The notes beneath the pieces are model-generated. The model made no database searches. It was not told the DNA's origin and worked only from the letters and a program-made list of their open reading frames with translations. The translations under genes and the position numbers were made by a program. Positions 33,809 through 51,854 of a stretch of 64,000 nt of DNA are shown here, in pieces. The stretch is from an uncultured Gemmatimonadaceae bacterium (GTDB lineage Bacteria; Gemmatimonadota; Gemmatimonadetes; Gemmatimonadales; Gemmatimonadaceae). How positions within the stretch are numbered: position 1 is the first letter of the stretch; each line of letters opens with the position of its first letter. The stretch covers positions 2,272,001 through 2,336,000 of the forward strand of contig OY970320.1 in the NCBI GenBank assembly GCA_963716745.1. The letters run 5' to 3'.

Positions 33809-33990
33809 GTTGCAGAGAACAGTAAACAGTCACGAGTACCTGCCAGTCGACAGTCAACAGCTCATAGGTCACAGAGAACGGATCAGCTTTGGGAGAGATC
33901 TCTCTCCCATTCGTGATCCGCTTTCTGTGACCTGTTGACTGTTGACTGTCGACTGGCAGTCACTCGTGACTGTTTTCTGTTGACTGCAAC
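33809..33990. repeat. Long heptamer-built palindromic element, copy 1
   Basis: GTTGCAG..CACGAGT..GCCAGTCGACAGTCAACAG..centre..CTGTTGACTGTCGACTGGC..ACTCGTG..CTGCAAC. Confidence 0.95.
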
Positions 33991-34080
33991 CCTCATTTCC
34001 TGGTGGCAAAGCAGTCCCCGCCTTGCCATCTCCCACGCACAGGGCCAACATAAATAAGCCCCGCCCCATGGGAGATCTCC

Positions 34081-35898
34081 GTGGCTCCGACGAATGTTTC
34101 CGATCCACAGTACTACCATAAAGTCGTCGACTGCCAATGGGCATGTCCTGCCCACACGAACGTCCCAGAATACCTCCGCCTCATCGCGCAGGGGCAGTAC
34201 ACCGATTCCTATATGCTCAACCGGGAATCGAACGTTTTCCCCGGAATTCTTGGCAGCACCTGCGACCGCCCCTGTGAACCCGCGTGCCGCCGAGGACGCG
34301 TCGACGGGAAACCGGTCGCGATCTGCCGCCTGAAACGCGTCGCCGCCGATCTGCGCGATGACATCACCGACCGCCTCCCCACCGCCCCACTCGTCAAGAA
34401 CGGAAAACGCATCGCCCTCGTCGGCTGCGGGCCTGCCTCGCTCACGGTCGCGAACGATCTCATGCCACTCGGCTACGAGTGCGTGATCTTCGAGAAGATG
34501 GACCGCTCGGGCGGACTCATGCGCATCAACATTCCCGCCTTCCGTCTTCCGGCCCACGTCCTGGATGAGGAGATCGAGTACATCACCAACATGGGCGTCG
34601 ACGTGCGCTACAACGCCCCCGTGAACAGCATGAAAGCGCTACTCGACGAGGGCTACGACGCGGTGTTCGTCGGCAGCGGCGCGCCCAAGGGGAAAGAGCT
34701 CGACATTCCGGGCCGCAACGACCCCGCGATCGCCGCGAACATCCAGATCGGCATCGAGTGGCTCGCCTCGGTCCACTTCGGCCACATCGAGAAGATCGGC
34801 AAGCGCGTGCTCATCATCGGCGTCGGCAATACGGCCATGGACTGCTGCCGCACGTCGAAGCGCCTCGGCGCGACGGATGTGAAGGTCATCGCGCGCCGCG
34901 GCCGGAAGTACTTCAAGGCGAGCCCGTGGGAGCTCGAAGATGCTGAAGAGGAATTGGTCGAGATCGTCGAGAACCACGCGCCCAAGAATTTCGTGATCAA
35001 GAATGGAAAGCTGGTCGGCATGGAGTTCGAAGTGCTGCGCTGGACCGTAAGCGCCGACGGCAAGCAGAGCAGTGAAGTGCTCGACACCGTCACCCTCCCG
35101 TGCGACGACGTGATCCTCGCGATCGGCCAGGACAATTCATTCCCCTGGATCGAGCGCGATATCGGGATCGAGTTCGACAAGTGGGAGATGCCGGTGGTGG
35201 ACAAGACCACGTACCAGTGCACGCGCCCCGGCGTCTTCTTCGGCGGCGACGCGGCGTGGGGGCCGCTGAATATCATTTGGGCCGTGGAGCACGGACACCA
35301 AGCGGCGATCTCCATCCACAACCAGTGCCAGAACCTCCCGATCACGGACCGCCCCGCCTTCGGCATGAATCTCGTGAGCGCCAAGGTCGGCATGCACGCC
35401 TGGAGCTACAGCAACGACTACAATCCGAGCCCTCGCGCCAAGATGAATCACGAGGAGCTCGTGAAGCGCTTCACCGATGTGCACATCGAAGTCGAACTCG
35501 GCTTCACTCCCGAGCAGACCGCGCGCGAAGTGGAGCGCTGCCTCAATTGCGATATCGAGACCCATTTCGCCGCGAACCTCTGCATCGAATGCGACGCCTG
35601 CGTCGACGTGTGCCCCGTGAACTGTCTCACTATCGCCCCCGGCGGCGACGAGAAGGACCTCCGCACGCGCCTCATGGCCCCCGCGACGAATCTGACGCAG
35701 GACCTGTACGTGAGCGCCGAGCTCCCCCAAACGAAGCGTGTGATGCTGAAGGATGAGGACGTATGCCTCCACTGCGGCCTCTGCGCCGAGCGCTGCCCCA
35801 CAGCAGCGTGGGACATGCGGAAGTTCGAACTGGAGGTCCCCTACGCGTTCGCAGTTGCAGGCGACAGCCGACAGCCGACAGCCGGGGTTGGTCGTTAG
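34081..35898 (+). CDS. FAD/4Fe-4S oxidoreductase (GltD-like with C-terminal ferredoxin domain; KorC-like)
   Basis: CQWACP, CDRPCEPAC, GCGPAS, GVGNTAMD, CIECDACVDVCP, CLHCGLCAERCP. Confidence 0.92.
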   Translation: MAPTNVSDPQYYHKVVDCQWACPAHTNVPEYLRLIAQGQYTDSYMLNRESNVFPGILGSTCDRPCEPACRRGRVDGKPVAICRLKRVAADLRDDITDRLPTAPLVKNGKRIALVGCGPASLTVANDLMPLGYECVIFEKMDRSGGLMRINIPAFRLPAHVLDEEIEYITNMGVDVRYNAPVNSMKALLDEGYDAVFVGSGAPKGKELDIPGRNDPAIAANIQIGIEWLASVHFGHIEKIGKRVLIIGVGNTAMDCCRTSKRLGATDVKVIARRGRKYFKASPWELEDAEEELVEIVENHAPKNFVIKNGKLVGMEFEVLRWTVSADGKQSSEVLDTVTLPCDDVILAIGQDNSFPWIERDIGIEFDKWEMPVVDKTTYQCTRPGVFFGGDAAWGPLNIIWAVEHGHQAAISIHNQCQNLPITDRPAFGMNLVSAKVGMHAWSYSNDYNPSPRAKMNHEELVKRFTDVHIEVELGFTPEQTAREVERCLNCDIETHFAANLCIECDACVDVCPVNCLTIAPGGDEKDLRTRLMAPATNLTQDLYVSAELPQTKRVMLKDEDVCLHCGLCAERCPTAAWDMRKFELEVPYAFAVAGDSRQPTAGVGR

Positions 35899-37737
35899 AT
35901 GTCCGCCGTCAATGATTTCTCGCTGAAGATCGCCACCGTCAACGGAACCGGTTCGGCCTCTGCGAACTCGCTCCTCATGCAGACCATCTTCCGCATGGGC
36001 ATCCCTGTCAGCGGAAAGAACATCTTCCCGTCCAACATCCAGGGCCTCCCCACCTGGTACGAGATCCGCGTCTCGGCGCACGGCTACACGGCGCGTCCGC
36101 CCGAGATCGATCTCGTGGTCGCGCTCAACAACGCCACGTACGCGAAGGATGTCGCCACGGTGCGCCCCGGCGGCTATCTGCTCTACGATTCCAGCTGGCC
36201 GCTCGACGCCGCGCTCAAGCGCGAGGACATCACGATCCTCGGTGTCCCCTTCGGGAAAATGTGCGTGGATGCCTTCGAGCGGGACCGCGATCGCACGCTG
36301 CTTCGCAACATCGCATACGCCGGCGCACTCGCGGCGCTGTTGTCGATCGACATGGATGTCATCACCGAAGCGCTCACCGAGAAATTCAGCAAGAAGAAGG
36401 CGTTGCTCGACGCGAATTTCACCGCGATCAGACTCGGTCACGATTTCGCGAAGGCGAACTTCACGTGTCCGCTGCCGTTCCATCTCAAGAAGATGGACGC
36501 CACGAAAGGGCACATCCTGATCGACGGCAATACGTCCGCCGCGCTCGGCGCTGTATACGCGGGCGCTACCGTGGGCGCGTGGTATCCGATCACGCCGGCC
36601 ACGTCGCTCATGGAGGCGTTCAAGGAATTCTGCGAGCGCTATCGCGTGGACCCGAAAACGAAGGAGAAGCGCTACTGCATCATCCAGGCGGAAGATGAAT
36701 TGGCGGCGGCCGGCATCGTGATCGGCGCGTGCTGGGCTGGGGCGCGGTCGTTCACGTCCACCGCGGGTCCCGGCATCGATCTCATGAGCGAGTTCATCGG
36801 GCTCGCGTACTATACCGAGACGCCGGCCGTCTTCTACGACATCCAGCGCACCGGCCCGAGCACCGGCATGCCGACGCGCACGCAGCAGGGCGATTTTCTG
36901 TCCATCGCGTATGCCTCGCACGGCGACACGAAGCACATCATGATCTTCCCGCGCGATCCGGAAGAGTGTTTCTCGATGAGCGTGGAGAGTTTCGATCTCG
37001 CCGAGCGTTTCCAGACGCCGGTGTTCGTCGTGAGCGATCTCGATATCGGGATGAACGACTGGATGTGCCCGCGGCTCAAGTGGAGCGACAAGTTCCGCCC
37101 CGACCGCGGCAAGGTGCTCGGCCCGGCGGAGTTGGAGAAGATCAAGAAGTTCAATCGCTATCTCGATCTCGACGGCGACGGCATCGCAGCGCGCACGCTT
37201 CCCGGGCAGGATGCGAAAGGCGCCTTCTTCTCTCGCGGCTCGGGCCATGACAAGTACGGCGCCTACACCGAGGAGAGCGACGCGTACAAGGAGGTCGTGG
37301 ACCGGATCGCGCGAAAGATCAATGGTTCCGCCGAGTCGCTGCCGGCCCCGGAGATCGTGAAGCAGAAGGACGCGAAGATCGGTCTCGTGAGCATCGGCGG
37401 CTGCGACGCCGCCGTGCGCGAAGCGTGCGATTCGTTGGCCGCGCAGAGCACAAAGGTGGACTACATGCGCATCCGCGCCTTCCCATTCGCGAAGGCGGTC
37501 TTGGAATTCCTCGAGTCCCACGACCGCATCTTCGTGATCGAGCAGAACCGCGACGCACAATTGCGGTCGCTGCTCACCATCGAGACCGGCTTCCCCCGCG
37601 ACCAAATGACGCCCGTCTTGGACTACGCCGGCTTGCCCCTCACCGCAAAGGTAGTCGTAGACGCCGTGTCGCCTGCGACAGCCAACAGCCGACAGCCCGC
37701 TTCAGTAGTTAAGAAGCGCAAGCCCGCCCGCACATGA
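35899..37737 (+). CDS. 2-oxoacid:acceptor oxidoreductase subunit alpha (gamma-alpha fusion)
   Basis: WYPITPAT, QAEDELAA, QRTGPSTGMPT. Confidence 0.95.
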   Translation: MSAVNDFSLKIATVNGTGSASANSLLMQTIFRMGIPVSGKNIFPSNIQGLPTWYEIRVSAHGYTARPPEIDLVVALNNATYAKDVATVRPGGYLLYDSSWPLDAALKREDITILGVPFGKMCVDAFERDRDRTLLRNIAYAGALAALLSIDMDVITEALTEKFSKKKALLDANFTAIRLGHDFAKANFTCPLPFHLKKMDATKGHILIDGNTSAALGAVYAGATVGAWYPITPATSLMEAFKEFCERYRVDPKTKEKRYCIIQAEDELAAAGIVIGACWAGARSFTSTAGPGIDLMSEFIGLAYYTETPAVFYDIQRTGPSTGMPTRTQQGDFLSIAYASHGDTKHIMIFPRDPEECFSMSVESFDLAERFQTPVFVVSDLDIGMNDWMCPRLKWSDKFRPDRGKVLGPAELEKIKKFNRYLDLDGDGIAARTLPGQDAKGAFFSRGSGHDKYGAYTEESDAYKEVVDRIARKINGSAESLPAPEIVKQKDAKIGLVSIGGCDAAVREACDSLAAQSTKVDYMRIRAFPFAKAVLEFLESHDRIFVIEQNRDAQLRSLLTIETGFPRDQMTPVLDYAGLPLTAKVVVDAVSPATANSRQPASVVKKRKPART

Positions 37738-38789: not shown

Positions 38790-39148
38790 GCGAGCCGTCT
38801 GCGCTCGGGAGCGCCCGCACACCGTGGCCGGCGATTCTCGCCGGCGCAATTATCGTCGCCAGCGGATTCATCCTGGGCGCCCCCAGCGTCCTCATCATCA
38901 TGATCACGACCGTGATCGGGATGACTGTCTGGTCATATGGATGTTTTCGATGGGCTCAGGGCGCTGCGCCCGTACCGTTGGTGCTTTGGGGCCTCGTGCT
39001 CGCCGGCGCAGCTCCCACATCCATCCCGTTCATCCGGACGCCCGATGATTGGGAGATGTGGCTCGGCATGACTGGTGCCATCGCGTCCGCCGTAGGATTG
39101 GCGTTCCTCGTTACAGGGGTGGTCCGACTGTCGAGAGCTCTCCAATGA
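38786..39148 (+). CDS. Hypothetical membrane protein; start uncertain
   Basis: Four hydrophobic segments; fills the gap with 4-nt overlaps on both sides. Confidence 0.55.
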   Translation: MSEPSALGSARTPWPAILAGAIIVASGFILGAPSVLIIMITTVIGMTVWSYGCFRWAQGAAPVPLVLWGLVLAGAAPTSIPFIRTPDDWEMWLGMTGAIASAVGLAFLVTGVVRLSRALQ

Positions 39149-39774
39149 ATCTTCTGATCCTCGGCGCCTCTGGCGGCACCGGCCGGCAGCTAGTTTCCCA
39201 AGCGCTCGCGGCGGGGCATCGCGTCACCGCAGTGTCGCGCCATCCCGATGGTTCAGGCGTTCCGCACCGGAATCTGTCGCTGGCGACGGCCGACGTCGCC
39301 GAGGATCCTAGTGCGATCGACCGCGTACTTCCGGGGCATGACGCGGTGCTCAGCGCGCTTGGGAGAGGGCTCTCGTTCGCGCCGAAACATCTCAGCGCGC
39401 ATACGGCCGCGAGATTGATTCCCGCGATGGAGCGTCTCGGCCCGAAGCGTCTCGTGTGGCTGTCGGCATGCGGTGTCGCGCCCGATTACGACGGCGCGAC
39501 CGGGCTCTCGAGATTGTTCTTCCGCACGCTGCTGAAAGGGATATATGCTGACAAATCGATCGGCGATGCGGCGGTGCGCGAGAGTCGGTTGGAGTGGACG
39601 ATCATTTGTCCGGTGATGCTTACGAATGATCGGGCGATCGGGAAATATCGGGTCGGGGAGCGGCTGGACGGCGTGAGTGGTGCGAAGATCTCACGGGCAA
39701 CGGTCGCGTCGTTCATGTTGCGATGTGCGACGGAAAGAGAGGCGGCGGTGAAGCGGTTGATCATCTCGTCTTAG
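39145..39774 (+). CDS. NAD(P)-binding oxidoreductase (flavin reductase/BVR-B-like)
   Basis: LILGASGGTG, HDAVLSALG, LEWTIICP, ISRATVA. Confidence 0.88.
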   Translation: MNLLILGASGGTGRQLVSQALAAGHRVTAVSRHPDGSGVPHRNLSLATADVAEDPSAIDRVLPGHDAVLSALGRGLSFAPKHLSAHTAARLIPAMERLGPKRLVWLSACGVAPDYDGATGLSRLFFRTLLKGIYADKSIGDAAVRESRLEWTIICPVMLTNDRAIGKYRVGERLDGVSGAKISRATVASFMLRCATEREAAVKRLIISS

Positions 39775-39811
39775 GGCGGGGGACTTCGGCGGCATCACCA
39801 GGGGGCTTAGG

Positions 39812-39996
39812 GTTGCAGTCAACAGCAAACAGTCACGAGTACCGGCCAGTCGACAGTCAACAGCTCACAGGTCACAGAAAACGGATCACGATATGGGCGA
39901 GCGATCTCTCCCTTATTCGTGATCCGTTTTCTGTGACCTGTTGACTGTTGACTGTCGACTGGCAGTCACTCGTGACTGTTTACTGTTTTCTGCAAC
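39812..39996. repeat. Long palindromic element, copy 2
   Basis: Same arms; centre ACGGATCACGA..TCGTGATCCGT; abuts the stop of the minus-strand gene. Confidence 0.95.
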
Positions 39997-41091
39997 TCAA
40001 TGCACACTGGTGGCTCGCGCCGTTGCAGTTTCAATCGACCACAACAGGATCTCCCTCGCTCTCATGACCCACGCGCGGTAAGCGGCATTATTCGTGCGCG
40101 CAGGCAATCGCGAAATCCCATCAAGATCGAACGCCGCCCCCCACGCTCCCAATCCCGCCTTCACCCCATCAAGCGCATTCAGCATTTGCTCAACATGCCC
40201 CTCAACCGGCACCATGAACACCGCTTTCCCCAACACCCCCGCCTCCGCCACCGACTCGAATCCCGCAGTCGACACCACGCACTTACACCCCGCCATCATC
40301 TGCAGAAATAACTCTCCGTCCAGTCGATGGAACGTCAAAGTATCGTCATGCCGAAATTCCTTCGGCGCACCAGGCTTATCATAGAAACAATGGATCTCCG
40401 TCTCCGGATGCCGTCCATGCCACTCGAGCACATGCTCGGCGTAACCATGATTCACCATATAGACCAAGACGAAATGCCCGGCGGGATCGGTCTCCAACTC
40501 GAATAGATGCTTCCTCAGCAACGGCGGTGCGACGGACATTCGTTCGTGCGGCAGATCCGGCGCCTCATAGTGTGACAGCGCCAGCCACGAAGACCGCGCG
40601 CCCACAAGCCGAGTGTACCACATGAGCCCCGCCTGCTGCGCGCGCATCTCGCGCATGTTCGGGAACGCGGGATGTTCCTGCAGGAACTGATGCCCGAGCG
40701 CGATGATCGGCGGCCGCGCGCGATACGCAAGCGCGTACACGCCCGTGAGCACTTCGTAGAAATTCAGGATCACATCAGGACTCCGCTCGCGCACGAGCGT
40801 CGCGAGCGCGCGCACGCTGCGCGCATACTCAGGCAGTCGCCGCAGCGCCCTCGCGATCGTGGCCGGCATATTCACCGACCGATTCCCCGTGAACGCGAAC
40901 TCCAGCGTCGGGATCACCGTCAACGCCACCGGCATCGCCGAAGCGAAGTAGTCCGGCAATTTCCTCTCGCGCCCCATCCCGACCACCACGCCCACGATCT
41001 CGTGCCCCGCGCTCTCGACGATCTCCTTGGCCGCCATCGCCTGGGTCAAGTGACCCCGTCCCTCGCCCTGTACGCAGAAGAGGATTCGCAT
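39997..41091 (-). CDS. Glycosyltransferase, MJ1255-like GT-B family
   Basis: MRILFCVQGEGRGH, TAGFESVAEA, VPVEGHVEQMLNA. Confidence 0.85.
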   Translation of the reverse strand: MRILFCVQGEGRGHLTQAMAAKEIVESAGHEIVGVVVGMGRERKLPDYFASAMPVALTVIPTLEFAFTGNRSVNMPATIARALRRLPEYARSVRALATLVRERSPDVILNFYEVLTGVYALAYRARPPIIALGHQFLQEHPAFPNMREMRAQQAGLMWYTRLVGARSSWLALSHYEAPDLPHERMSVAPPLLRKHLFELETDPAGHFVLVYMVNHGYAEHVLEWHGRHPETEIHCFYDKPGAPKEFRHDDTLTFHRLDGELFLQMMAGCKCVVSTAGFESVAEAGVLGKAVFMVPVEGHVEQMLNALDGVKAGLGAWGAAFDLDGISRLPARTNNAAYRAWVMRAREILLWSIETATARATSVH

Positions 41092-41812
41092 GGAGCTCGA
41101 GTAAAGTGATGACGCCGTCGAAATCCTCGACCAGCGCAGTGCAACTCTCCACCCAATCGCCGCAATTGAGATAGCGCACGCCGCCAATATCCTTCATCTC
41201 CGCGCGGTGGATATGACCGCAGATCACGCCGTCGGCGCCCTCACGGCGAGCCATCTGTGCGATCGTGCGCTCGTAGTCCGACATGTAGGCGACTGCGGCC
41301 TTGGCCTTCCCCTTGAGGTAGGCGGCGACGGACCAGTAGCCGAAGCCGAGCGTCCGGCGCAGGCGGTTGAAATGGAGATTGAAATCGAGGATCCAGTCGT
41401 AGAGATGGGATCCCACGCGCTCGAGCAGGGGGCCGATGCTCGTGAGACCGTCGGCCTGGTGTCCGTGGAGGACGAGATAGCGCTTGCCGTCGGCGCCGAC
41501 GTGGATCACTTGGCGCGCGATGGTCACGCTGCCGAATTGCAGCCCCGCGAAATCCTCGAGGAATTCGTCATGATTGCCCGTGATATAGATCACGCGCGTC
41601 TGCTTACGGCTCTTTCGCAGCAGTTTTTGGATCAGAACATTGTAATCATCGTGCCAATGCCACTTCGACTTCAATTGCCAGCCATCGACGATATCGCCGA
41701 CAAGGTAGAGATAGTCGGAATCGTTGTGTTTCAGGAATTCGAGGAGAAGATCGGGGCGGGAATGTTTTGTGCCGAGGTGGAGGTCGGAGAGCCAGATTGT
41801 GCGATAGTGCAT
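40829..41812 (-). CDS. LpxH/PlcP-family metallophosphoesterase; C-terminal ~88 aa overlap the glycosyltransferase, so the true stop may be near 41090
   Basis: SDLHLG, LVGDIVDGW, GNHD, HGH, ICGHIH, NCGDWVE. Confidence 0.88.
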   Translation of the reverse strand: MHYRTIWLSDLHLGTKHSRPDLLLEFLKHNDSDYLYLVGDIVDGWQLKSKWHWHDDYNVLIQKLLRKSRKQTRVIYITGNHDEFLEDFAGLQFGSVTIARQVIHVGADGKRYLVLHGHQADGLTSIGPLLERVGSHLYDWILDFNLHFNRLRRTLGFGYWSVAAYLKGKAKAAVAYMSDYERTIAQMARREGADGVICGHIHRAEMKDIGGVRYLNCGDWVESCTALVEDFDGVITLLELHANPLLRTGRGTGSLDPGDGGQGDRRERGARDRGRGGRDGAREEIAGLLRFGDAGGVDGDPDAGVRVHGESVGEYAGHDREGAAATA

Positions 41813-41903
41813 GTCATTCAATTCACTGCATCACGGTCATCGTTAGGGGGTGAATGGGTAACGTTTGGGTCACAACGGCGCTTTCATCACCAGGGTGCTT
41901 ACG

Positions 41904-42087
41904 GTTGCAGAAAACAGTAAACAGTCACGAGTAACTGCCAGTCGACAGTCTACAGTCAACAGGTCACAGAAAACGGATCACGATTCGGCGCGATGCATCG
42001 CACGCTATCGTGATCTGTGTTCTGTGACCTGTGAGCTGTTGACTGTCGACTGGCAGTCACTCGTGACTGTTTACTGTTGACTGCAGC
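41904..42087. repeat. Long palindromic element, copy 3
   Basis: Same arms; ends CTGCAGC. Confidence 0.95.
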
Positions 42088-42192
42088 CTTCCGAAGCATG
42101 TGGCTCAGCGTCCTTCCGCCGTTCCCCCATGGAACCTCCGCAACGATTGGGGTAGCAAAGCACTTACCACCCGCACCAGGAGGTCGAACCTC

Positions 42193-42618
42193 ATGCGCCT
42201 CTACGTCCGTTCGCTCCTCGTCCTATCCGCCGTCGCGGTCGCCGCCTGCAGTACCGATTCTAATCTTTCCCAAAGCCAGATCACGGCCGAGCACCTGAAC
42301 GGCACGTGGTCAGAACCGTTCACGATCCCCGGCGAATCGTTCGTGCTGCATCTCACTACGCACGATACGACTGTCACGGGCGACGGCTTCTTCAGTTTCG
42401 AGGCCGGACCGGCGGGAATGCTGACTGTCACCGGCACGGTATCGGGCAAGCAGGTCGATCTCGATATCGTCTATAGCTTTGGCCTCCATCAGCATATCCG
42501 CGCGGATCTCGAGTTCGGCACGCTGAGCGGCTACGTGTATACGACACCGGTGGGCGATCCTGCGCCGATCACGCTCAAGCGAACTTTGTTGCCGCCGGGC
42601 GCGGAGCCTCCAGTATGA
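42193..42618 (+). CDS. Hypothetical beta-rich lipoprotein
   Basis: SD AGGAGG; lipobox VAVAAC; LNGTW..LHLT. Confidence 0.75.
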   Translation: MRLYVRSLLVLSAVAVAACSTDSNLSQSQITAEHLNGTWSEPFTIPGESFVLHLTTHDTTVTGDGFFSFEAGPAGMLTVTGTVSGKQVDLDIVYSFGLHQHIRADLEFGTLSGYVYTTPVGDPAPITLKRTLLPPGAEPPV

Positions 42619-43016: not shown

Positions 43017-43158
43017 ACCGCCGGCAGTCGTCATGCATGTTGGGCTCGCGGCGGTGTCTTATGAGTTCACCGCGGTTGCGAGTTAGGGGTCGTGATGGCG
43101 GCTGCCGGCTGTCCCTATTCACTACTGACTGCGAACGACTGTCACCAGCGCGGGGAGA

Positions 43159-43342
43159 GTTGCAGTAAACAGAAAACAGTCACGAGTGACTGCCAGTCGA
43201 CAGTCAACAGTTCACAGCTCACAGAAAACGGATCACGATAGGGCGAGAGACCTCGCCCCTCCTCGTGATCCGTTTTCTGTGACCTGTGAGCTGTTGACTC
43301 TCGACTGGCCGGTACTCGTGACTGTTTACTGTTCACTGCAAC
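43159..43342. repeat. Long palindromic element, copy 4
   Basis: Same arms; inner arm variants reversed relative to copy 2. Confidence 0.95.
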
Positions 43343-43360
43343 GCCGGATGTCTCTGATGG

Positions 43361-45363
43361 TCAATTCGGCTTAATCCCCACCGCCTTATCCAGCTCCGCC
43401 GGCGAATAGAGCACGCCGTTCTTCATCACCACCGACACCTTCCGGATGTCCGAAATATTCTCCGCAGGATGTCCATCCACAACGATCATATCCGCGAACT
43501 TTCCCACCGTCACAGAGCCGAGCGATTTATCCATCTTCATCACTCTCGCCGCGCCAAGAGTCGCGATCTGCAGCACTTCCGGAGGCGTGATCCCAGCCTG
43601 CCCATAGAGTTCCAACTCCCGATCATACGCGAAGCCAGGAAATCCATCCGTCCCCGCGACGATCACGAGCCCATTGTCATGCATCATCTTCACCATCTTG
43701 AGCATCGCCGCAAAACTGTCCTTATACCGCTGATCCATCCCCTCCGGCACGGGCAATCCACCGGTCAATAATCCACGCCGCACACCGGCCGGAAGACGAT
43801 CCGCGATCATCGCGTAGCCAGGATCGAGCGTCCCCTTCCGCGCGACGAACATATTCTCGAACACATTCACTGTGGGATCGAGCACGGTGTGATGCGCTTT
43901 CAAGAGCGCGACGAAATCCTGCACGCTGGGCGACCCCAGATCCAACTGCGCCGCCTTCTGCGCCACGGCCGTGAAGCGCGCCGGCGTGCGCGTGTCGGGC
44001 ACGGAATCGATCCAGAAATTCAGGAAGAGGAAATTCGCGTGCTGGATCTCATCATATCCCGCATTCACCGCCTGCGCGGCCGTCATGAACGCCGGGACAT
44101 GTCCGCTCACGCGCAGCCCCAGCTTGTGCGCCTCGGCGGCGATCACCGGGCACCAGCTCGGGCTTCACGGAGCTGTAGATCTTGATCTGCACGTAGCCCA
44201 ATTTCGCGACGCGGTCCACGATCGCGCGCGCGGTGTCGGGATTGTCGGCCAGCAGCTTGGTGGGACCGGCGAACGGGCCGGGTCCGTCGATCAAAGCCGC
44301 GAGGATGAGCCGAGGACCGAGCAGGGAACCGTTGCCGAATCGCTTCTGCCGGACGAGCGATTCGTCGACGTCGTTCCCGAGATCGCGCACCGTGGTGATG
44401 CCCGCCTGCAGGAACATGAGACCGTCATCGTCGCCGGTGTGGACATGCATATCCCACATGCCCGGCATCACCGTCTTGCCCGTCGCCTCGATCACCTGCG
44501 TGCCGGCTGGGATTTTCACTTTCCCATTGGGTCCAACGGCAGTGATCTTGTCGCCGTGCACGACGATGGTCGTGTGCGGCACGATCTTGCCCGTCACCGC
44601 GTCGAACAGATCGGCATCGTGGAACGCCACCGCGCCTTTCGGCTTGTGCGCGAGCGTCGCGGCCATGTGCGCCGTGCGCACGGAATCGCCAACGGACTGG
44701 ATCGCGATCAGCTCCGCCGCGGTCGATTCCCAGCCCTTTCGGATGATGCTCATCCAACTGTTCGGTGCCGCGAACAGCGTGGTGTCGGTATCGTACCAGA
44801 GCGAGACGGGGGTGAAGCCGAAGCCGGTGAACGAATAATGGATCACAGTGCGGGTCTCGCCGTTCGCATGCAGCGTCGCCGAGCCCACACTGTCGATATG
44901 CGCCTCGCCCGCGGGCAGCATCTTCATCGAATGCCCCGGCGCGCGCAGCAACAACTTTGCGAGCAGAGTATTCTCGATCGTCGCGCCATCCATGCTGTTA
45001 TAGAACACGGGCACGGTGATCGGCGCGCTCCCCGCCTCCGCCGAATTCTTCCAGATCGCCGTTCCATTCATCACGGAATAGCTCTCGGCGACCGGAGTTT
45101 TCAGATAATCGTGACCGGTGGTGCTGACGGTGAGTTGCGTGCCATTCGGCGCGAGGGTGATGGTCTCATCATATGACGGTCCTCGGCCGCGGTCGTTGAA
45201 TTCATAATGCGCGTTCCAGCTACCATTTGCGGAGCGCCATTCTTTTTCGTAGCCGGCGGGGTGGCCGGCCATGAGGATGGTGTAGCGACGTGGTATCGGT
45301 CGTTTGCGCCATTGAAACGGCGGAAAGGCCGAAGATCATTGCGGCGGCGAAGGTAGTGCGCAT
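43361..45363 (-). CDS. Secreted amidohydrolase-family protein; frameshifts near 45289 and 44150
   Basis: Signal peptide; PGMWDMHVH, GITTVRDLG, QIKIY, VSGH, EIQH, AGTD, GKFAD. Confidence 0.9.
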
Positions 45364-45401
45364 GGCGTGTGTCCGGAGTGGGGAGTACGAGGGTGCTTAG
45401 A

Positions 45402-45584
45402 ATTGCAGTCAACAGCAAACAGTCACGAGTGACTGCCAGTCTACAGTCAACAGTCTACAGCTCACAGAAAACTGACTGCGAAAGGCCGCAAACAGCAATG
45501 GCCCCATTGCGCCGCTTTCTGTGACCTGTTGACTGTTGACTGTCGACTGGCAGTCACTCGTGACTGTTTTCTGTTTACTGCCGC
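45402..45584. repeat. Long palindromic element, copy 5
   Basis: Same arms; unrelated centre; flanked by GCTTAG/CTAAGC. Confidence 0.95.
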
Positions 45585-45591
45585 CCTAAGC

Positions 45592-48093
45592 TCACTCAGA
45601 GCGAAGTGCAGTCAACGGATCGACCTTCCCAGCCCGTCGTGCCGGTACCAAGCTTGCCACCGCAGCGACACCCAGCAGTACCACCCCCACTCCCACGAAC
45701 ACCACCGGATCATACGGCGAAACCTGGAACAACATCGGCCTCACCCACTTTCCTGCCACCGCCGCGATCCCGCCGCCGATGATCACTCCCACCGAAGCCA
45801 AGATCATCCCTTCGCCGAGCACTAATCTCACGACATCCGAAACCTGAGCCCCGAGCGCGACGCGCACGCCCAATTCATGCGTCCGCTGAGCAACATTGTA
45901 CGCGATCACGGAATACAACCCGATCGCTGCCAAGATCAATGCCAACACTCCGAACACAGTGAACATCGCCGCGCCCAGCCGCCATGATTGCGTCTCGCGT
46001 CCAACGATGTCCGAGAAGGGAGTCACGGTCACGTAACTCGCCCCCGGCATCACGGCCTGCAAGCGCTTGCGCAGTGTCTCCCGATCCGCCGGCCGCGCGC
46101 CATTCGTGCGCACGAGGATCGCGGAATGATTCGCCTGATTCTCCTGCGCGGCGCTCAGGTAGTAGAAATAACCCGGATCGTCCGAGAAATTGCGCGACTT
46201 CGTATTCTCCGCGATCCCCACCACATACGTGCACGGCATAGTGTCGGATCCGACTTTCATGCATTGCCCAAGTGCGTCGGTCTTGGGCCACAGCACCTTC
46301 GCCATCGCCTCGCTCACCACCGCCGACCTCGGCGCACCCGCGACGTCGGTCGCCGTGATCCCTCGGCCTCGCACGATGCGCGTGCCCACCGTATTGAAGA
46401 AATCGGGCGTCACCGCGTTCATATCGAACTCGCCGAGCTTGTCCACCGAATCGATCCCGGCCACGTGGAGGTCCTCGCTCCACATGCTCCAGAAGGGGAG
46501 CGTCGCGCTCAGCGCCACGTGCTCGACGCCCGGCGTGGCCTTCGCCGTCTCGAGCAGGCTGAGCAGCAATTGCTCGGTATGCGCGCTGTCCAACTTCACG
46601 CCGCGCATGATCGGATCGATCACGGTGACCCGCGTGGCGTCGTAGCCGAGGCTCATGGCATTGACGTTGTGCAACGAGCGCACGAACAGGCCCGCGCCCA
46701 CGAGCAGCACGACGCTCAGCGCGCCCTGGAATACGAGGAGTCCAATGCGCAGGCGCGAACAATGCACCGCGCCCTCGCGCGCTCCGGCCTTGAGATCGAG
46801 CGTGAGATCGGCGCTCCGCGTCTGGACGATCGGCGCGAGCCCGGTGAGCAGACCAGCCACGAGCGCCGCGAGGCCGGCGAAGACGAGAACTCGCGGATCG
46901 CCGATCACCGCGGCGCCTTCGGTCTTGGGCAGCATGGTCGTGCGCAGAATGCCGCCGCCCAATTGTGCGATCACGATCCCCACCACGCCGCCGAGCGCGG
47001 CGAGCAGAACGCTCTCGGTGAGCAATTGCGCCGCGAGCCGGCCGCGGCTCACGCCGAGCGCGAGGCGCACGGCCACTTCACGTTTCCGGCGCAGTGCGCG
47101 CGCGAGCAACAAGTTCGCGACATTCGCGCAGGCGATGAGCCATACCACGACCGCGACGCCAGCGATCCAGCCTGCGACCTTCGCCTCGCTCGATTGCTGC
47201 GGCCCACGCTCGGCTAATATCAATGCGACGATCGCGTGTGGCTTCGCCAGTTCGGGCGGTGTCTCGTTCTTGTCGGCCGCGGCCTGCGCGGCGTATTCGC
47301 GCTGAAACGCGCCGCTGATGTCCGCCGTAGCCTGCTCAAGCGAGACGTCCGGCTTCCGCTCGGCGATCATGCGTGCCCACTGCCAATGATACGTCACGTC
47401 CCACGACTCGCCGAGCAGGCGGAGGCCTTCGCCCAGCTCGTGACCGTACGCCGAGATCGGGATGAAGGCGGCGGGGGGCTGCGACGGCGAGAGTCCGACG
47501 AAGCCTGCCGGCGTGACGCCGATGATCGTGTAGCGCGTGGCGCCTATTTGTATCGGCTGCCCGATCGCATCGGCGCGTCCGCCGTACTGCGTTTGCCAGA
47601 GTCCGTAGCTGAGTACTGCGACGGCCGTACCGACCGGCGCGACATCTTCGCTCGCGGTGAAGTAGCGGCCGGCGGCAGGCGGCGCAGTGAAGAAGCCGAA
47701 GAAGGAGGCGCTCACGGCGGATACCTGCATCTCGCGCGAATCGAGACCGTCGCCGATCGCGAGCTTGCGGTCGAACATCGCCGCCGTTCGCGTGAAGGAA
47801 TTGGTCTCTTTCGTGAGATTCTGGATCCGCGCGTAGGGCAGGGAACCGCCCGCGAATTCTTTGCCGCGATAGCTGGTGGCGAGATAGATCCTGTGCGTGC
47901 GCGCGGGGTTGGCGAGCATGGGCGGAGCGCGGAAGAGCAGTTGATCTACTATGGAGAAGATCGCGGCGTTGGCTCCGATGCCGAGTGCGAGCGTGAGGAT
48001 CACGGCGACGGTGAAGCCCGGTTTGTTCTTGAGACCGCGGAGGGCGTAGGTGAGGTCTTGTTTTGTCGCTTGCCAGCGGCTTTCGGTGGACAT
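45592..48093 (-). CDS. ADOP-type ABC permease (intact)
   Basis: [47 protein letters not shown]. Confidence 0.95.
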   Translation of the reverse strand: MSTESRWQATKQDLTYALRGLKNKPGFTVAVILTLALGIGANAAIFSIVDQLLFRAPPMLANPARTHRIYLATSYRGKEFAGGSLPYARIQNLTKETNSFTRTAAMFDRKLAIGDGLDSREMQVSAVSASFFGFFTAPPAAGRYFTASEDVAPVGTAVAVLSYGLWQTQYGGRADAIGQPIQIGATRYTIIGVTPAGFVGLSPSQPPAAFIPISAYGHELGEGLRLLGESWDVTYHWQWARMIAERKPDVSLEQATADISGAFQREYAAQAAADKNETPPELAKPHAIVALILAERGPQQSSEAKVAGWIAGVAVVVWLIACANVANLLLARALRRKREVAVRLALGVSRGRLAAQLLTESVLLAALGGVVGIVIAQLGGGILRTTMLPKTEGAAVIGDPRVLVFAGLAALVAGLLTGLAPIVQTRSADLTLDLKAGAREGAVHCSRLRIGLLVFQGALSVVLLVGAGLFVRSLHNVNAMSLGYDATRVTVIDPIMRGVKLDSAHTEQLLLSLLETAKATPGVEHVALSATLPFWSMWSEDLHVAGIDSVDKLGEFDMNAVTPDFFNTVGTRIVRGRGITATDVAGAPRSAVVSEAMAKVLWPKTDALGQCMKVGSDTMPCTYVVGIAENTKSRNFSDDPGYFYYLSAAQENQANHSAILVRTNGARPADRETLRKRLQAVMPGASYVTVTPFSDIVGRETQSWRLGAAMFTVFGVLALILAAIGLYSVIAYNVAQRTHELGVRVALGAQVSDVVRLVLGEGMILASVGVIIGGGIAAVAGKWVRPMLFQVSPYDPVVFVGVGVVLLGVAAVASLVPARRAGKVDPLTALRSE

Positions 48094-48147: not shown

Positions 48148-48189
48148 GGCTGGGTTGCGGACGAAACTACTGTCGCCAGGACGCTTAGA

Positions 48190-48368
48190 ATTGCAGTGAA
48201 CAGTAAACAGTCGCGAGTACCGGCCAGTCAACAGTCTACAGTCAACAGGTCACAGAAATCGGGTCAGCGCGACGGATGATCCAACGCGCATGGAGCAGTT
48301 TTCTGTGACCTGTTGACTGTAGACTGTAGACTGGCAGTCACTCGTGACTGTTTACTGTTAGCTGCCGC
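48190..48368. repeat. Long palindromic element, copy 6
   Basis: Same arms; centre is an inverted homolog of the copy 7 centre. Confidence 0.95.
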
Positions 48369-48404
48369 CTTCCCCCGGGCCGGACTTTCCGGTAGTGTCG
48401 TACC

Positions 48405-48431
48405 AACCCTCCCCCCACCGGGTGTGTCGAA
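48405..48431 (+). promoter_or_regulatory. ECF-type promoter motif AAC-N17-TGTCGAA (implies a near-leaderless mRNA)
   Basis: 5 nt before ATG 48437. Confidence 0.65.
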
Positions 48432-48436
48432 CGATC

Positions 48437-50911
48437 ATGCCCTCCCTCCGCTCCCTCACCCGCACCCCAGCCTTCACCACCGCCGCCGTCCTGACTCTCG
48501 GACTCGGCATGGGCGCTACGACCTCGATCTACACTCTACTCAAACGAGTCGTCCTCGACCCCCTGCCATATCCCCACCCAGAACAATTGGTCCGCCTCAC
48601 GAACCCTATGCCTTCCGTGGGGCATGACGTCGAGTGGAGTCTCAGTACCGCGCAATATTTCTATTTCTCGCAACATGCCAAGACCCTGTCCGCCATCGGA
48701 CTCTTTCGCGAAGGCGGGCTGAATTTCGCCTCGAACGTGCCAGGCGCCGAACCCCAGCACGTTCACGCCGCCGAGGTCACGGCGTCGATGATGGATCTCC
48801 TTGGCGCTAACGCGATCCTTGGCCGCCTGATCAATAGGAATGATGACGTTCCGGGGGCCCCACGGGTCGCAATGCTTTCGCGCGGTTTCTGGCGCCGGCA
48901 ATTCGGTGCGGACCCATCGATCATCGGCACGACGATCAGGCTCGATGACGCGCCGGTGCAAGTCATCGGCATCATGGCGCCCGGCGTCGAAGTCCCGCTC
49001 GAACGCGGGCAGGCGGTGGGTGTCGCGACCAATGTGTGGACCGCGCGCCGGCTCGATCCGGCCGGTCCGTTCTACAATAACCATGTGAATCCTGGCATCG
49101 CGCGCCTCGCCCCCGGCGCGACGGTCGCTTCGGTGAGCGCGGAATTGGATCAGCTCACGAAGCAATTCCCCGCGGCGTTCCCGGTCGCGTATTCCGAGAA
49201 TTTCATCAAGAACTTCCATACGCGCCCGTATCCGCTCAAGGAGTATGTCGTGGGCGGCGCGGCGCGGAATCTCTGGATCCTGTTCGGCGCCGTCGCGCTC
49301 GTGCTGCTGATCGCGTGCGCGAACGTCATCAATCTATTCCTCGTGCGCTTCGAGGCCCGGCGCAGAGAATTCGCCATTCGCGCAGCGTTGGGCGCCGGCT
49401 GGCGCGATATCGCAATCGATTCCTTCCGCGAATCGGCGATCCTCACGCTGGCCGGCGCTGCGGTCGCGCTCGTGCTGGGCTACTCCGCCACGCGCTGGCT
49501 CGTCGCGCTCGCACCATCGAGCCTGCCACGACTGGCCGACCTGCAGCTCGATCCGGGCGTCTTCGCATTCACCATCATTCTAGCCCTTCTGATCGCTGGG
49601 ATCCTCGCACTCGTACCCGTTCTACGCACGAACCGCCCGGACGCCATAGGTGCACTCGGCGATGGCGGCCGGTCCGGCACCGCCAACGTCCAACGTCAGC
49701 GCTTCCGCAGCATTTTGGTCGTCTCGCAGGTCGCATTGGCGCTCGTGCTCGTCGTCGGTGCCGGATTATTGCTCGAATCCTTCCATCGCCTGAGCAAGGT
49801 GAGTCCCGGGATCGATAGCCGAGGAACGATGACTGTGGAACTGTACCCTTCGTCGCAGCGATATGAGACGATGGAGAAGTTGTGGCAATTCTATGCGCAG
49901 GTCATCGCGAAAGTGGACGCAATTCCCGGCGTCGCATCGGCCGGATTGACCGAGGAATTGCCCTTCAGCGGCGATTTCGGATGCACCGTGCAAGGATTCG
50001 AGGATGCCGGTGTCTATGAACAACTGAAACGCTCGCACCAGACCGAGTGCGCCGGGCAGGAGACCACATCACCCGGCTATTTCGCCGCAATGGGCATCCC
50101 GGTCCTGAAGGGCAGGGAATTCGTGGCGGGCGATAACGATTCTCCATTGGGCGGCGCTGTTGTCGTGAGCAAGACATTCGCCGACCGCTTCTGGCCCGGC
50201 GAGGATCCGATCGGCAAAGGCACCGCGCCCAATGGCAACGGCAAAGGCCCGTTCTATCATGTGGTCGGAGTCGTCGGCAATGTCCATATCTCCAGCCTCG
50301 ACGGCGAAATGGCCAACGCGATCTATTATCCCATCGTCGCGATCCCGCATACCGGGCAATGGTTCGATGGTGAAATGGCCCTCGTCATCAGAACAACGCG
50401 CGGCAGCCCCGATTCCTACCTGAATGCGGTCCGGCGTGCCGTCGCCGAAGTCGATCCGGCAGTCCCGATCGCGAACGCGCAGGAAATGGAAACGGTCGTC
50501 GCACGTTCAATGAGCCGCCTCACCTTCACGATGACGCTGCTCGGCGTCGCCGGCGTCACGGCGCTCCTTCTTGCCGCGATCGGATTATACGGACTCATTG
50601 CCTACATAGTAGAACGTCGCACGAACGAGATCGGCGTTCGTTTGGCACTCGGCGCGCAACCGATACAGGTGGAAGGAATGGTCGTGCGCGGCGCGATGAA
50701 GCTCACGATTGCAGGATTGGCCGTCGGAGCCGTTGTCGCGCTCCTGTTCTCGCGATTGCTCGGCTCACTCTTGTACGGAATCGCACCGTGGGATTTTGGA
50801 GCATATCTCGGCGCGATCGGAGTGCTCGGAGTTGTGGCGTTATTGGCGGGGTGGGTGCCGGCGCGGAGAGCTGGTCGGATCGATCCGGCGGTGGCGCTGC
50901 GCTCGGAGTGA
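48437..50911 (+). CDS. ADOP-type ABC permease (intact)
   Basis: LTLGLGMGATTSIY, LLIACANVINL, RRTNEIGVRLALGA, DPAVALRSE. Confidence 0.95.
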   Translation: MPSLRSLTRTPAFTTAAVLTLGLGMGATTSIYTLLKRVVLDPLPYPHPEQLVRLTNPMPSVGHDVEWSLSTAQYFYFSQHAKTLSAIGLFREGGLNFASNVPGAEPQHVHAAEVTASMMDLLGANAILGRLINRNDDVPGAPRVAMLSRGFWRRQFGADPSIIGTTIRLDDAPVQVIGIMAPGVEVPLERGQAVGVATNVWTARRLDPAGPFYNNHVNPGIARLAPGATVASVSAELDQLTKQFPAAFPVAYSENFIKNFHTRPYPLKEYVVGGAARNLWILFGAVALVLLIACANVINLFLVRFEARRREFAIRAALGAGWRDIAIDSFRESAILTLAGAAVALVLGYSATRWLVALAPSSLPRLADLQLDPGVFAFTIILALLIAGILALVPVLRTNRPDAIGALGDGGRSGTANVQRQRFRSILVVSQVALALVLVVGAGLLLESFHRLSKVSPGIDSRGTMTVELYPSSQRYETMEKLWQFYAQVIAKVDAIPGVASAGLTEELPFSGDFGCTVQGFEDAGVYEQLKRSHQTECAGQETTSPGYFAAMGIPVLKGREFVAGDNDSPLGGAVVVSKTFADRFWPGEDPIGKGTAPNGNGKGPFYHVVGVVGNVHISSLDGEMANAIYYPIVAIPHTGQWFDGEMALVIRTTRGSPDSYLNAVRRAVAEVDPAVPIANAQEMETVVARSMSRLTFTMTLLGVAGVTALLLAAIGLYGLIAYIVERRTNEIGVRLALGAQPIQVEGMVVRGAMKLTIAGLAVGAVVALLFSRLLGSLLYGIAPWDFGAYLGAIGVLGVVALLAGWVPARRAGRIDPAVALRSE

Positions 50912-50946
50912 CGGGCAACTGCGTTCCACCCACCAGCGCCGGTAGC

Positions 50947-51126
50947 GTTGCAGTCAACAGTAAACTGTCACGAGTACCTGCCAGTCAACAGTCTACAGTC
51001 AACAGGTCACAGAAAACCGTTCCACGTGCGCCAGGAGCTGCCGTCGCGCTGAGCCGATTTCTGTGAGCTGTTGACTGTTGACTGTTGACTGGCAGGTACT
51101 CGTGACTGTTTACTGTTAGCTGCCGC
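50947..51126. repeat. Long palindromic element, copy 7
   Basis: Same arms; ends CTGCCGC. Confidence 0.95.
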
Positions 51127-51204
51127 CTTCCCAGCCTGGTGGCCGAAGTCTTTTTTCAGTATCGCGGGTAATACTGCACTATCCCTCACCATAGTAGGCG
51201 CCCC

Positions 51205-51654
51205 ATGCATCTCCCAAAGTCCTCCCTCCTACTCACCGCCCTCGTAGTCGCCGCCTGCAATAATTCAACAACCCCAACCTCACCCGCCGCGAGCAGCGCG
51301 GCACCGGGCGACACAACCCACGTCGCGCCGAATACAATAATCCTTTCCGGCCACGTCTTCGCCATGCAAGCGACTCCCGCCGCGATGGGATCGGATACGC
51401 TGCACTATATCCCCATCGCGAACGTCAGTCTGCGCTTGATGCATAATATTCTCGTGAACGGCAATTCCGCGCAGGAGCTTGCGGGCAATGCTATCTCCGC
51501 GGCGGACGGCAGTTATCGATTCCCGAATCTCCCGAGCGGCTACTATGTCCTCTACGCCACGCCGTCGAGCGCGTCGGGATATTCTGGATCGTATTCGTTG
51601 GTGCCGGGCCAGAGTGCTAGTACGGTTGTGGATGTATTCGTCTGGAAGAATTGA
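51205..51654 (+). CDS. Lipoprotein with carboxypeptidase-regulatory/Cna-B-like domain
   Basis: Lipobox VVAAC; SAADGSYRFPNLPSGYY. Confidence 0.75.
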   Translation: MHLPKSSLLLTALVVAACNNSTTPTSPAASSAAPGDTTHVAPNTIILSGHVFAMQATPAAMGSDTLHYIPIANVSLRLMHNILVNGNSAQELAGNAISAADGSYRFPNLPSGYYVLYATPSSASGYSGSYSLVPGQSASTVVDVFVWKN

Positions 51655-51693
51655 CGAGAAGCCAACTGCGGCCTGACCACTTGCCGTCACTAG

Positions 51694-51854
51694 CTTGCAG
51701 AAAACAGTAAACAGTCACGAGAACTGCACCGCAGTCTACAGTCAACAGTCAACAGCTCTCAGAAAACGGCGCTACGTTGAACCACTTTCTGTGACCTGTT
51801 GACTGTAGACTGTAGACTGGCAGTCACTCGTGACTGTTTACTGTTCCCTGCCGC
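51694..51854. repeat. Long palindromic element, copy 8 (short centre)
   Basis: Same arms; centre CGGCGCTACGTTGAACCAC. Confidence 0.93.

Follow-up and report, generated by a model that had tools for sequence, protein, structure and literature searches.

Probable gene-less relatives of rRNA intervening sequences among the heptamer-built palindromes of a Gemmatimonadaceae bacterium

The stretch of DNA analyzed here, called the window throughout, comprises 64,000 nucleotides (positions 2,272,001-2,336,000) of a single 3,292,296-bp contig, the closed 3.29-Mb genome of an uncultured Gemmatimonadaceae bacterium (G000 below). Between its protein-coding genes lie eight long palindromes, e1 to e8, whose arms are arrays of seven-base units. 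We put at roughly 80% the probability that these are gene-less members of a genus-specific family of hairpin elements of the intervening sequence (IVS) type, a type associated with a four-helix-bundle protein. The arms were located by an inverted-repeat scan over the whole window, all eight elements were aligned (mean column identity 71%), and a profile built from the eight copies returned exactly these eight loci within the window, with plus-strand E-values from 1e-51 to 1e-68. Each entry below is supported by scan, alignment and profile alike; the family is designated A, percentages give arm complementarity, and ORF stands for open reading frame.

33790..34008: e1, gene-less A-family palindrome; arms 33808-33898/33901-33991 (91 nt, 84%); start at the stop codon of ORF 33254-33790, with 72 nt between the element and the downstream ORF 34081-35898.
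39794..40015: e2, gene-less A-family palindrome; arms 39796-39891/39917-40012 (96 nt, 85%); between the stop codons of convergent ORFs 39049-39774 (plus) and 39997-41187 (minus).
41886..42105: e3, gene-less A-family palindrome; arms 41903-41995/41996-42088 (93 nt, 85%); between the start codons of divergent ORFs 40829-41821 (minus) and 42100-42618 (plus).
43141..43360: e4, gene-less A-family palindrome; arms 43159-43249/43252-43342 (91 nt, 86%); ends 18 nt from the stop of ORF 43361-44146 (minus).
45385..45597: e5, gene-less A-family palindrome; arms 45389-45470/45516-45597 (82 nt, 87%); overlaps the stop codon of an 833-aa MacB/FtsX permease ORF, 45592-48093 (minus).
48172..48377: e6, gene-less A-family palindrome; arms 48193-48265/48293-48365 (73 nt, 86%); between the starts of divergent permease ORFs 45592-48093 (minus) and 48395-50911 (plus), 17 nt from the start codon of the latter.
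50931..51144: e7, gene-less A-family palindrome; arms 50950-51022/51051-51123 (73 nt, 89%); 19 nt past the stop of ORF 48395-50911.
51676..51870: e8, gene-less A-family palindrome; seeded arms 51732-51765/51786-51819 (34 nt, 91%), the alignment giving two full arms, the left one with a variant linker, and a short center; 21 nt past the stop of ORF 51205-51654.

An earlier note on this DNA had described eight palindromes at these positions, and scan and profile both bear it out; the heptamer-built arms and variable centers that it reported are visible in the sequence and in the eight-copy alignment, and its impression that the elements are richer in AT agrees with a GC content of 0.514, against 0.651 for the window. 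Its length estimate of 160-185 bp was too short, since the elements span about 195-260 bp once the outer stems and the outermost AACTAC/AACTGC motif are counted. Complementarity in e1 to e7 is 84-89% over arms of 73-96 nt, and the centers of the eight copies, 0-45 nt long, differ from copy to copy and hold no ORF. Folded as RNA, e2 is predicted to form one hairpin, at -168.4 kcal/mol as compared with -79.7 +/- 4.9 for 200 shuffled sequences (z = -18).

Reading inward, each arm begins with an AACTAC/AACTGC tip and a short outer stem; four heptads follow, then a linker of 10 nt, a further five heptads and finally the inner stem, giving nine phased units of the type NNNACAG. The consensus arm is CACCAGGGCGCTTAGGG / TTGCAG TCAACAG TAAACAG TCACGAG / TGACTGCCAG / TCGACAG TCAACAG TCAACAG GTCACAG / AAAACGGATCACGA, and the outer stem consensus of A-family elements is CACCAGGGCGCTTAGGG / CCCT..CTGGTGGC. 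The inner block, CCAG TCGACAG TCAACAG TCAACAG GTCACAG, makes up the five heptads, and the linker shifts the heptad phase. A standard linker is found in 44 of 58 genomic arms, and in these the ACAG of each heptad is at least 90% conserved; variation is found at base three of TC[N]ACAG and, in the final two units, at bases one and two. Where the four-heptad and five-heptad blocks meet, each arm has a small internal hairpin (CAGTCAC GAG/CTC GTGACTG), as at window 33955-33974 and 39961-39980. It is abolished by an alternative linker allele, GAGTACCTGCC, which was present on both arms in 0 of 22 elements tabulated by eye, where 1.4 would be expected, a difference that is not significant.

The neighbors of the window copies are ordinary chromosomal genes, among them MacB/FtsX permeases, a 2-oxoacid:ferredoxin oxidoreductase operon, a glycosyltransferase, an amidohydrolase and a sigma-54 activator. 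According to the ORF list, six of the eight copies (e1, e2, e4, e5, e7 and e8) overlap a stop codon or lie within about 20 nt of one. No ribosomal RNA (rRNA) is found at the elements, all eight of which are placed between protein-coding ORFs, and a search with Rfam models at gathering score gave no match in the whole window. Contigs from four soil or rhizosphere DNA runs that map to 33.0-52.9 kb are short and mostly end at the elements; one joint among them, 45467->48298 (depth 6), is possibly an assembly artifact across repeats.

Applied to the 3.29-Mb genome with nhmmer, the profile finds 37 A-family loci, all between 749,991 and 2,521,775: 28 gene-less palindromes (the eight of the window included), two inside-out pairs, six single arms and one split, gene-bearing copy. 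They are clustered: ten fall at 750-782 kb, another four at 831-851 kb, and the window holds eight. Because the whole-genome scan spreads the loci over a 1.77-Mb arc, the local array that the earlier note proposed is real for the window, where the eight are indeed clustered, and not for the genome, which holds 29 more loci between 0.75 and 2.52 Mb. Copies no more than 12 kb apart are slightly more alike than others (0.858 versus 0.842; naive permutation p about 0.0002, the pairs being non-independent). With a crude ORF caller covering 78% of the genome, a gene 3' end lies within 30 nt of at least 24 of the 37 loci. In the inside-out members, at genome 769,476-769,667 and 1,083,862-1,084,024, the outer stems of a right and a left arm are joined, leaving a loop of 4-6 nt; these are again perfect palindromes, but of opposite handedness; at the 769,476 site two related genomes, G004 and G005, have a normal-handed TCATCAG-type palindrome instead.

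A single A-family copy carries a gene. It lies at genome 2,350,854-2,351,520, 27 kb beyond e8, and its arms (at 2,350,854 and 2,351,413) enclose about 460 bp with one ORF of some 125 codons. Two checks that the earlier note had suggested thus gave positive results, namely a search for a copy whose center holds an ORF, here a four-helix-bundle gene, and a profile scan of the genome, with its 37 loci; the family also occurs in three of the five other genomes of the genus. The ORF matches PF05635 (23S_rRNA_IVP) with an E-value of 4e-31, TIGR02436 ("four helix bundle protein") with 7e-30, and the five-chain crystal entry PDB 2gsc with 5e-24. The AlphaFold model of the protein is a four-helix bundle (predicted local distance difference test score, pLDDT, 97.3) that superposes on 2gsc with a template modeling (TM) score of 0.89, and also on 2rld ("S23 ribosomal protein family") and on Avd, the accessory protein of diversity-generating retroelements (DGRs). 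Avd (PDB 4dwl, 8ub7) has the same four-helix-bundle fold, with TM scores of 0.81-0.85 at 13-14% identity. In the solved DGR complexes, according to the titles of those two entries, Avd is part of a ribonucleoprotein with reverse transcriptase; here, by contrast, no reverse transcriptase was found in the genome (PF00078, 0 matches).

The association of gene and arms is not peculiar to this copy. The genome has seven matches to PF05635, of which four are full-length, two are partial and above the cut-off, and one is below it. Each of these seven genes or fragments sits inside a palindrome, and no two of the palindromes have the same unit: four are made of TCAACAG, CCGACAG, GCGGGAA and CCGGGAACCG.., respectively, and the other three of longer composite units. 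Among such genes in six genomes of the genus, 18 of 18 examined are surrounded by inverted arms made of tandem units, which are mostly 7-mers. For a wider survey, an alignment of ten proteins from the genus was used as the query and yielded 80 loci, spread over many phyla of bacteria and two lineages of archaea. Scores were computed for the 75 that have 200 nt or more on either side, with upstream flanks paired to the downstream flanks of other loci as the control; an inverted-repeat score of at least 18 was reached at 31 of the 75 loci as compared with 1 of 75 with mismatched flanks. The strong arms of these 31 loci have a period of 7 in 26 cases and of 8 in five. Arms of the A family run to about 95-115 nt, against 20-45 nt in most surveyed loci of other taxa. 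Because PF05635 genes sit between inverted tandem-unit arms both in this genus and in other phyla, the eight palindromes are the gene-less form of a widespread type of cassette, and it is the arm length and the copy number that are unusual here.

The genome as a whole has 271 palindromes with arms of at least 30 nt at 80% or better, in at least ten sequence families. Many start exactly with AAC(N)(A/G)C, most commonly AACGGC, AACTGC or AACTAC, and A-family elements have one to three AAC(N)(A/G)C units outside the outer stem. The motif stands at both ends of 99 of the 271 and at one end or more of 175, as compared with 0.4% and 10% of random places and with 4 and 46 of the 271 when the positions are shifted 60 nt outward. 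Among the 31 strong cassettes of other phyla it is found at both ends of none and at one end of two. We therefore rejected it as a feature of the cassette class, given 0 of 31 at both ends elsewhere, and take it as a feature of this lineage. The four-helix-bundle protein is the sole protein type found between such arms; a few long-loop "palindromes" bracket ordinary secreted-protein genes, and no transposase-like ORF occurs inside any long-loop palindrome of the genome.

The closest described thing is the ORF-bearing intervening sequence of rRNA genes. As set out in PMC4990558, the 23S rRNA IVS of Coxiella burnetii and Leptospira has terminal inverted repeats that form a long stem around an S23p/PF05635 ORF, the Coxiella IVS has tandem GACAGAT heptamers in its 5' part, RNase III has been shown to cut the stem, and the IVS is, in its authors' view, a selfish element whose origin is unknown. 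Long inverted-arm stem, tandem heptamers and, in the gene-bearing A copy, the four-helix-bundle ORF are thus common to both. The elements described here differ in lying between protein-coding genes, in lacking an ORF at 36 of 37 loci, in arm length (about 95-115 nt, against a 28-bp IVS stem), and in their dozens of copies and at least nine coexisting families; RNase III processing is assigned to them by analogy. The element is, accordingly, an intergenic, amplified, long-armed and mostly gene-less form of the IVS design.

In population structure the closest analog is a different one, the repetitive extragenic palindromic (REP) sequences and REPINs with their REP-associated tyrosine transposases (RAYTs). 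REP units are short palindromes that occur singly and as inverted pairs of both arrangements, between genes and often past stop codons; one or a few protein genes are flanked by the same units, and inheritance is vertical at fixed sites. Here too there are inverted pairs of both arrangements, single units, intergenic amplification often next to stop codons, a gene flanked by the repeated units and vertical inheritance at fixed sites, although the units are far longer tandem-heptad arrays and the gene is that of a four-helix-bundle protein, not a Y1/HUH transposase. One might suppose that the elements are REPs, REPINs or MITEs (miniature transposable elements with inverted repeats) that a RAYT (Y1/HUH) or a DDE transposase mobilizes in trans, or else integron attC-like sites: they are palindromic, intergenic and clustered, single genes or operons lie between copies, and adjacent gene content differs between relatives. 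For attC in particular, imperfect palindromes at gene 3' ends in a local array add to the likeness.

The enzymes that such a system would use were searched for across the genome. PF01797 (Y1_Tnp) gave no match, while the control search was positive in 6 of 14 reference genomes, and PF07282 (TnpB zinc-ribbon), PF01548 (IS110 DEDD) and PF01609 (DDE_Tnp_1) gave none each, in an assembly of 89.8% marker completeness and with transposase families beyond those named, such as other DDE families, outside the search. PF00589 (Phage_integrase) matches at four places, 0.30, 0.51, 1.44 and 2.78 Mb, none of them in the window or near any copy. The genes between copies lie on both strands, the ends read AAC(T/G)(A/G)C...G(Y)(N)GTT rather than RYYYAAC...GTTRRRY, the attC core consensus, the arms, unlike those of attC sites, are made of tandem heptads, and the only gene found between arms encodes a four-helix bundle. 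We thus consider a REP, MITE or attC origin exceedingly improbable, and for the G000 assembly, at its stated completeness, largely refuted; a MITE of DDE or IS110 ancestry was likewise set aside, there being no parent insertion sequence among the families searched and a target duplication that is ambiguous at one empty site. The earlier statement that the window encodes no recombinase is borne out for 22 ORFs that were scanned in the 29.8-55.6 kb interval, part of the window's total, and is extended by the six families searched genome-wide. The same note's picture of a non-autonomous family served in trans fits with one gene-bearing locus in 37, with presence/absence and replacement polymorphism, and with restriction to one genus. 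Among the partners that it named, the four-helix-bundle protein is supported, whereas HUH/RAYT (no Y1 gene) and a tyrosine recombinase (four places, all far from copies) are not. Its remark that the elements do not match the attC consensus also stands, as their ends show.

Comparison with relatives shows a family of narrow distribution. It is absent from 35 genomes of other genera of the family and order, and among 185,579 species representatives an exact 20-base arm pattern occurs at 44 loci, in three Gemmatimonadaceae genomes and one Gemmatimonadales contig. A blastn search with e2 against plasmid and phage collections found no match. Within the genus, all eight copies of the window cluster are present in G002, with flanks about 95% identical, and seven of the eight in G005, with flanks about 80% identical; both have orthologs of e2. 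At the e1 site G002 has a copy, whereas G005 has a different palindrome, made of GACAGGAT units, that fills the same space between stop codon and conserved promoter region.

Every palindrome site, of any family, was classified in this way across four aligned regions. Of 24 comparable sites in G002, 19 have the same family, four another palindrome and one a sequence that is not palindromic; G005 has 16 comparable sites (eight more are not comparable), ten with the same family and six with another palindrome and none with any other outcome; the four comparable sites in G004 have the same family in no case, another palindrome in two, and weak or chimeric arms in two. A clean empty site is found in G004 where G000 and G002 carry a copy at 777,483: two convergent genes end there one base apart (..CCGTAG|TTCAG..), and the filled sites have CCGTA(A/G) at both junctions in G002 and less cleanly in G000, so that a 6-7-bp target duplication is possible as judged from the sequence. 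A locus at 2,355,640-2,355,920 carries three different elements stacked together in G000; G002 has part of the stack (flanks 96% identical) and G005 has none of it. Gene content also differs beside some elements. G002 has an extra ORF of about 130 codons before e2 (L024 7140-7696 versus window 39759-39787), G005 (L023) has no match within window 42585-43016 to the stretch of ORF 42615-43016 before e4, and G005 lacks a gene together with both of its flanking palindromes in the comparison of L048 8217-9727 with L052.

Arms at orthologous G000 and G005 sites are 86.3% alike (n=7), as compared with 85.6% at non-orthologous sites (n=49), and arms within one genome are 87.6-88.8% alike; between G000 and G002 orthology is still visible, at 96.0% versus 87.7%, and the centers of orthologous copies are largely retained. 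G005 has its own arm consensus, for example CAGCTAACAGCAAACAG on both arms of most copies. The sites persist, in other words, while what occupies them is renewed or exchanged, and each genome's arm consensus drifts separately. Because the likeness between the arms of a single element does not exceed that between arms taken from different elements, it is the arm sequence that is maintained. In an ungapped count over 637 positions of orthologous G005 copies, 198 changes were one-sided; of the two-sided changes, 18 were compensatory and 46 of another kind, figures that linker indel shifts distort.

Conservation of arm sequence rather than of pairing is what would be expected of double-stranded DNA binding arrays, centromere-like or nucleoid-organizing, that are read by a repeat-binding protein and do not move; phased heptads and the confinement of all copies to one 1.77-Mb arc fit the same idea. 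We nevertheless consider it very unlikely. At least ten unrelated families share the architecture in one genome, the occupant family changes at fixed sites, and the same architecture is found inside rRNA genes elsewhere (PMC4990558). Cumulative GC skew, moreover, shows no clear origin or terminus to which the arc could be related.

A further property of the elements is seen in the genes beside them. On the plus strand, GC skew is +0.30 at 100-50 nt before and -0.35 at 50-100 nt after the A family (29 copies), +0.16 and -0.15 for all 271 palindromes, and +0.02 and -0.02 for 974 palindrome-free gaps. The pattern is seen in all four orientations of flanking genes. Third codon positions were taken in the 150 nt beside A-family copies and compared with control gaps: on the strand running into the hairpin, C is 0.174, G 0.537 and T 0.177 (control 0.394, 0.418 and 0.092), and on the strand running out of it, C is 0.536, G 0.188 and A 0.168 (control 0.426, 0.378 and 0.088). 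The resulting GC skew at third positions (GC3 skew) is +0.51/-0.48 beside A-family copies as compared with +0.03/-0.06 at control gaps. The size of the skew switch rises with arm length (Spearman 0.28, p 2e-6; 0.20, p 0.002 without the A family). It follows from this strand composition that RNA is rich in C and poor in G, like a Rho-loading site, whichever way it leaves the hairpin. The elements may cause the skew or may choose sites already skewed.

Such flanks invite the explanation that the palindromes are host-serving modules at gene ends, two-way (possibly Rho-assisted) transcription stops, RNA-stabilizing hairpins or insulators kept by selection, for which a selfish origin and the gene are incidental. 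This overlaps with the explanation that we prefer, from which it differs only in the force that keeps the palindromes in place. The sites are nearly always filled (24 of 24 in G002, 23 of them palindromic, and 16 of 16 in G005) and tightly placed at stop codons, the GC3-skew switch is independent of flanking gene orientation and scales with arm length, and third-position G rises as well as T, unlike what C-to-T damage alone would produce. On the other hand, e3 and e6 are flanked by divergent start codons, a place where a transcription stop would hardly be useful, the hairpin is not followed by a U-tract, terminator-like sites occur at chance, G004 and G005 each have an empty orthologous site, a different one in each, with genes intact, and the arm sequence is conserved far beyond the needs of a hairpin. 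Host service as the whole explanation is therefore possible but, on this evidence, somewhat doubtful.

The skew could instead have arisen because the strand ending 3' at the hairpin is repeatedly single-stranded. Palindromes that act as hairpin or cruciform breakage hot spots, cut at replication by an SbcCD-type nuclease and restored by recombinational repair, would have no RNA role, and would account for the homogenization (through ectopic repair), the variable centers and the strand-biased flanks. On either side of the hairpin it is indeed the C-poor strand that ends 3' there, however the genes are oriented, longer arms go with a larger effect, orthology signal is lost while a genome-specific consensus appears, and nearby copies are slightly more alike, as given above. 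Lost third-position C, however, is replaced more by G (+0.12) than by T (+0.085), unlike simple deamination; this may speak for selection over deamination. Together with the retention of centers in orthologous G000 and G002 copies, it makes breakage a quite improbable account.

The reading that we consider best is that the elements are non-autonomous and of IVS type, and that they also act as RNA hairpins at gene ends. Window copies would be transcribed with their neighbors, and the arms would form a duplex of about 90 bp that may be cut by RNase III, by analogy with the 23S rRNA IVS of Coxiella; such cutting would render the insertion harmless and define a transcript end. With C-poor upstream and G-poor downstream flanks, the elements could serve as two-way transcript-end or insulator modules. 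The four-helix-bundle protein may act in trans on the heptads of its own family. Copies would be renewed or replaced at their fixed sites by a copy-and-replace process, either gene conversion or cassette exchange through the termini shared across the genus, with no classical transposition.

A number of observations weigh against parts of this proposal. We know of no catalytic activity for the PF05635 protein family, and the gene is present at only one of 37 A-family loci. In G005 the ortholog of the gene-bearing copy has TCATCAG-type arms and a gene with an internal stop (protein 57-69% identical to that of G000, flanks 85% identical), yet about 20 A-type copies are retained; since copies persist there without an intact cognate gene, the protein is not needed for persistence. 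G004, an assembly 76% complete, has TCATCAG-type copies and no matching gene was found in it. As regards mobility, most sites are unchanged between G000 and G002 (8 of 8 in the window, 19 of 24 overall, at 91-96% identity), and there is a single clean empty site, whose target duplication (CCGTAR) is ambiguous. As regards selection for pairing, the two arms of one element are 86.7-88.8% alike, just as arms of different elements are. Consensus scans of 33.0-52.9 kb, finally, put promoter-like sites (5 versus 5.0 expected) and terminator-like sites (13 versus 12.7 expected) at chance, and the terminator-like matches inside the arms are the small internal CAGTCAC..GTGACTG hairpin.

A more specific form of the proposal can be put forward. 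The inner block of each A-family arm is exactly five heptads, and a related protein, of 2GSC type, is pentameric. A pentameric ring might then read the phased heptads one per subunit, as TRAP reads GAG repeats, and direct copy-and-replace of hairpin cassettes through their AAC(N)(R)C ends at gene-boundary sites, which would make this a transposase-free mobile or self-renewing element. We regard the idea as speculative and rather unlikely. Were it true, it would explain constant sites with changing families, homogenized arms and a strand-specific footprint in the flanks, and would unite bacterial heptamer repeats and rRNA intervening sequences as one system with its own protein.

Heptamer repeats outside rRNA have been described in other bacteria. 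Cyanobacteria have short tandemly repeated repetitive (STRR) heptamers, one of which is presumably a cyclic permutation of the unit found here; a literature search gave no paper in support. Xanthomonas has GGGAATC heptamers in 70-75 convergent pairs per genome and Nostoc has GGGGA(C/T)T (PMC4692102), while Beggiatoaceae have TAACTGA (PMC4679880), a unit with stop codons in all frames like the AACTAC/AACTGC tips of the A family. In both papers these are intergenic tandem 7-mers, often convergent inverted pairs of a type conserved between related species, as is the case here, and are read as G-quadruplex or regulatory elements; the A-family unit differs in not being G-rich and in belonging to a much larger composite arm. 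The terms "S23", "intervening sequence" and "four helix" do not occur in either paper, and in the full-text literature outside subscription journals we found no paper tying PF05635/S23p genes to heptamer-repeat palindromes outside rRNA.

Abundant heptamer repeats and rRNA intervening sequences are two old unexplained features of bacteria that appear at this locus as one thing in clear form. To what was described before, the locus adds a single gene-bearing copy, an end motif shared across families, sites that persist under change of family, a genome in which none of five searched transposase and reverse-transcriptase families is found, and a large recoding of flanks. Occupant exchange at persistent sites, the genus-wide end motif, and flank recoding (GC3 skew up to 0.5) proportional to hairpin length are leads that could reveal how the elements spread, or show that such hairpins generally serve to end or insulate transcripts.

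Other repeat families of the same genome also reach the window. A second heptad family (GCGACAG CCGACAG CCGACAG) has 58 arms genome-wide and a four-helix-bundle gene of its own at genome 2,198,608-2,198,922; its single arms in the window are at 35861-35881, 37675-37695, 7485-7505 and 10048-10068. In the 2-oxoacid:ferredoxin oxidoreductase operon, genes one and two each have a second-family arm within their final codons, which extends the ORF and supplies the stop (..GTTAG ATG; ..GTAGTTAA). At the first operon junction the arm is common to G002 and G005, while G001 and G003 are without it and have a shorter C-terminus. A third heptad family, of GGCCATC units, is represented by a palindrome at window 13967-14092 with 30-nt arms that are 97% complementary and 66 nt apart. 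The genome also has several families of 9-nt units, of TTGACAGGA/TTAACATGA type and of CCGTCCGAT type, for example at 901,205-901,300 and 907,696-907,846.

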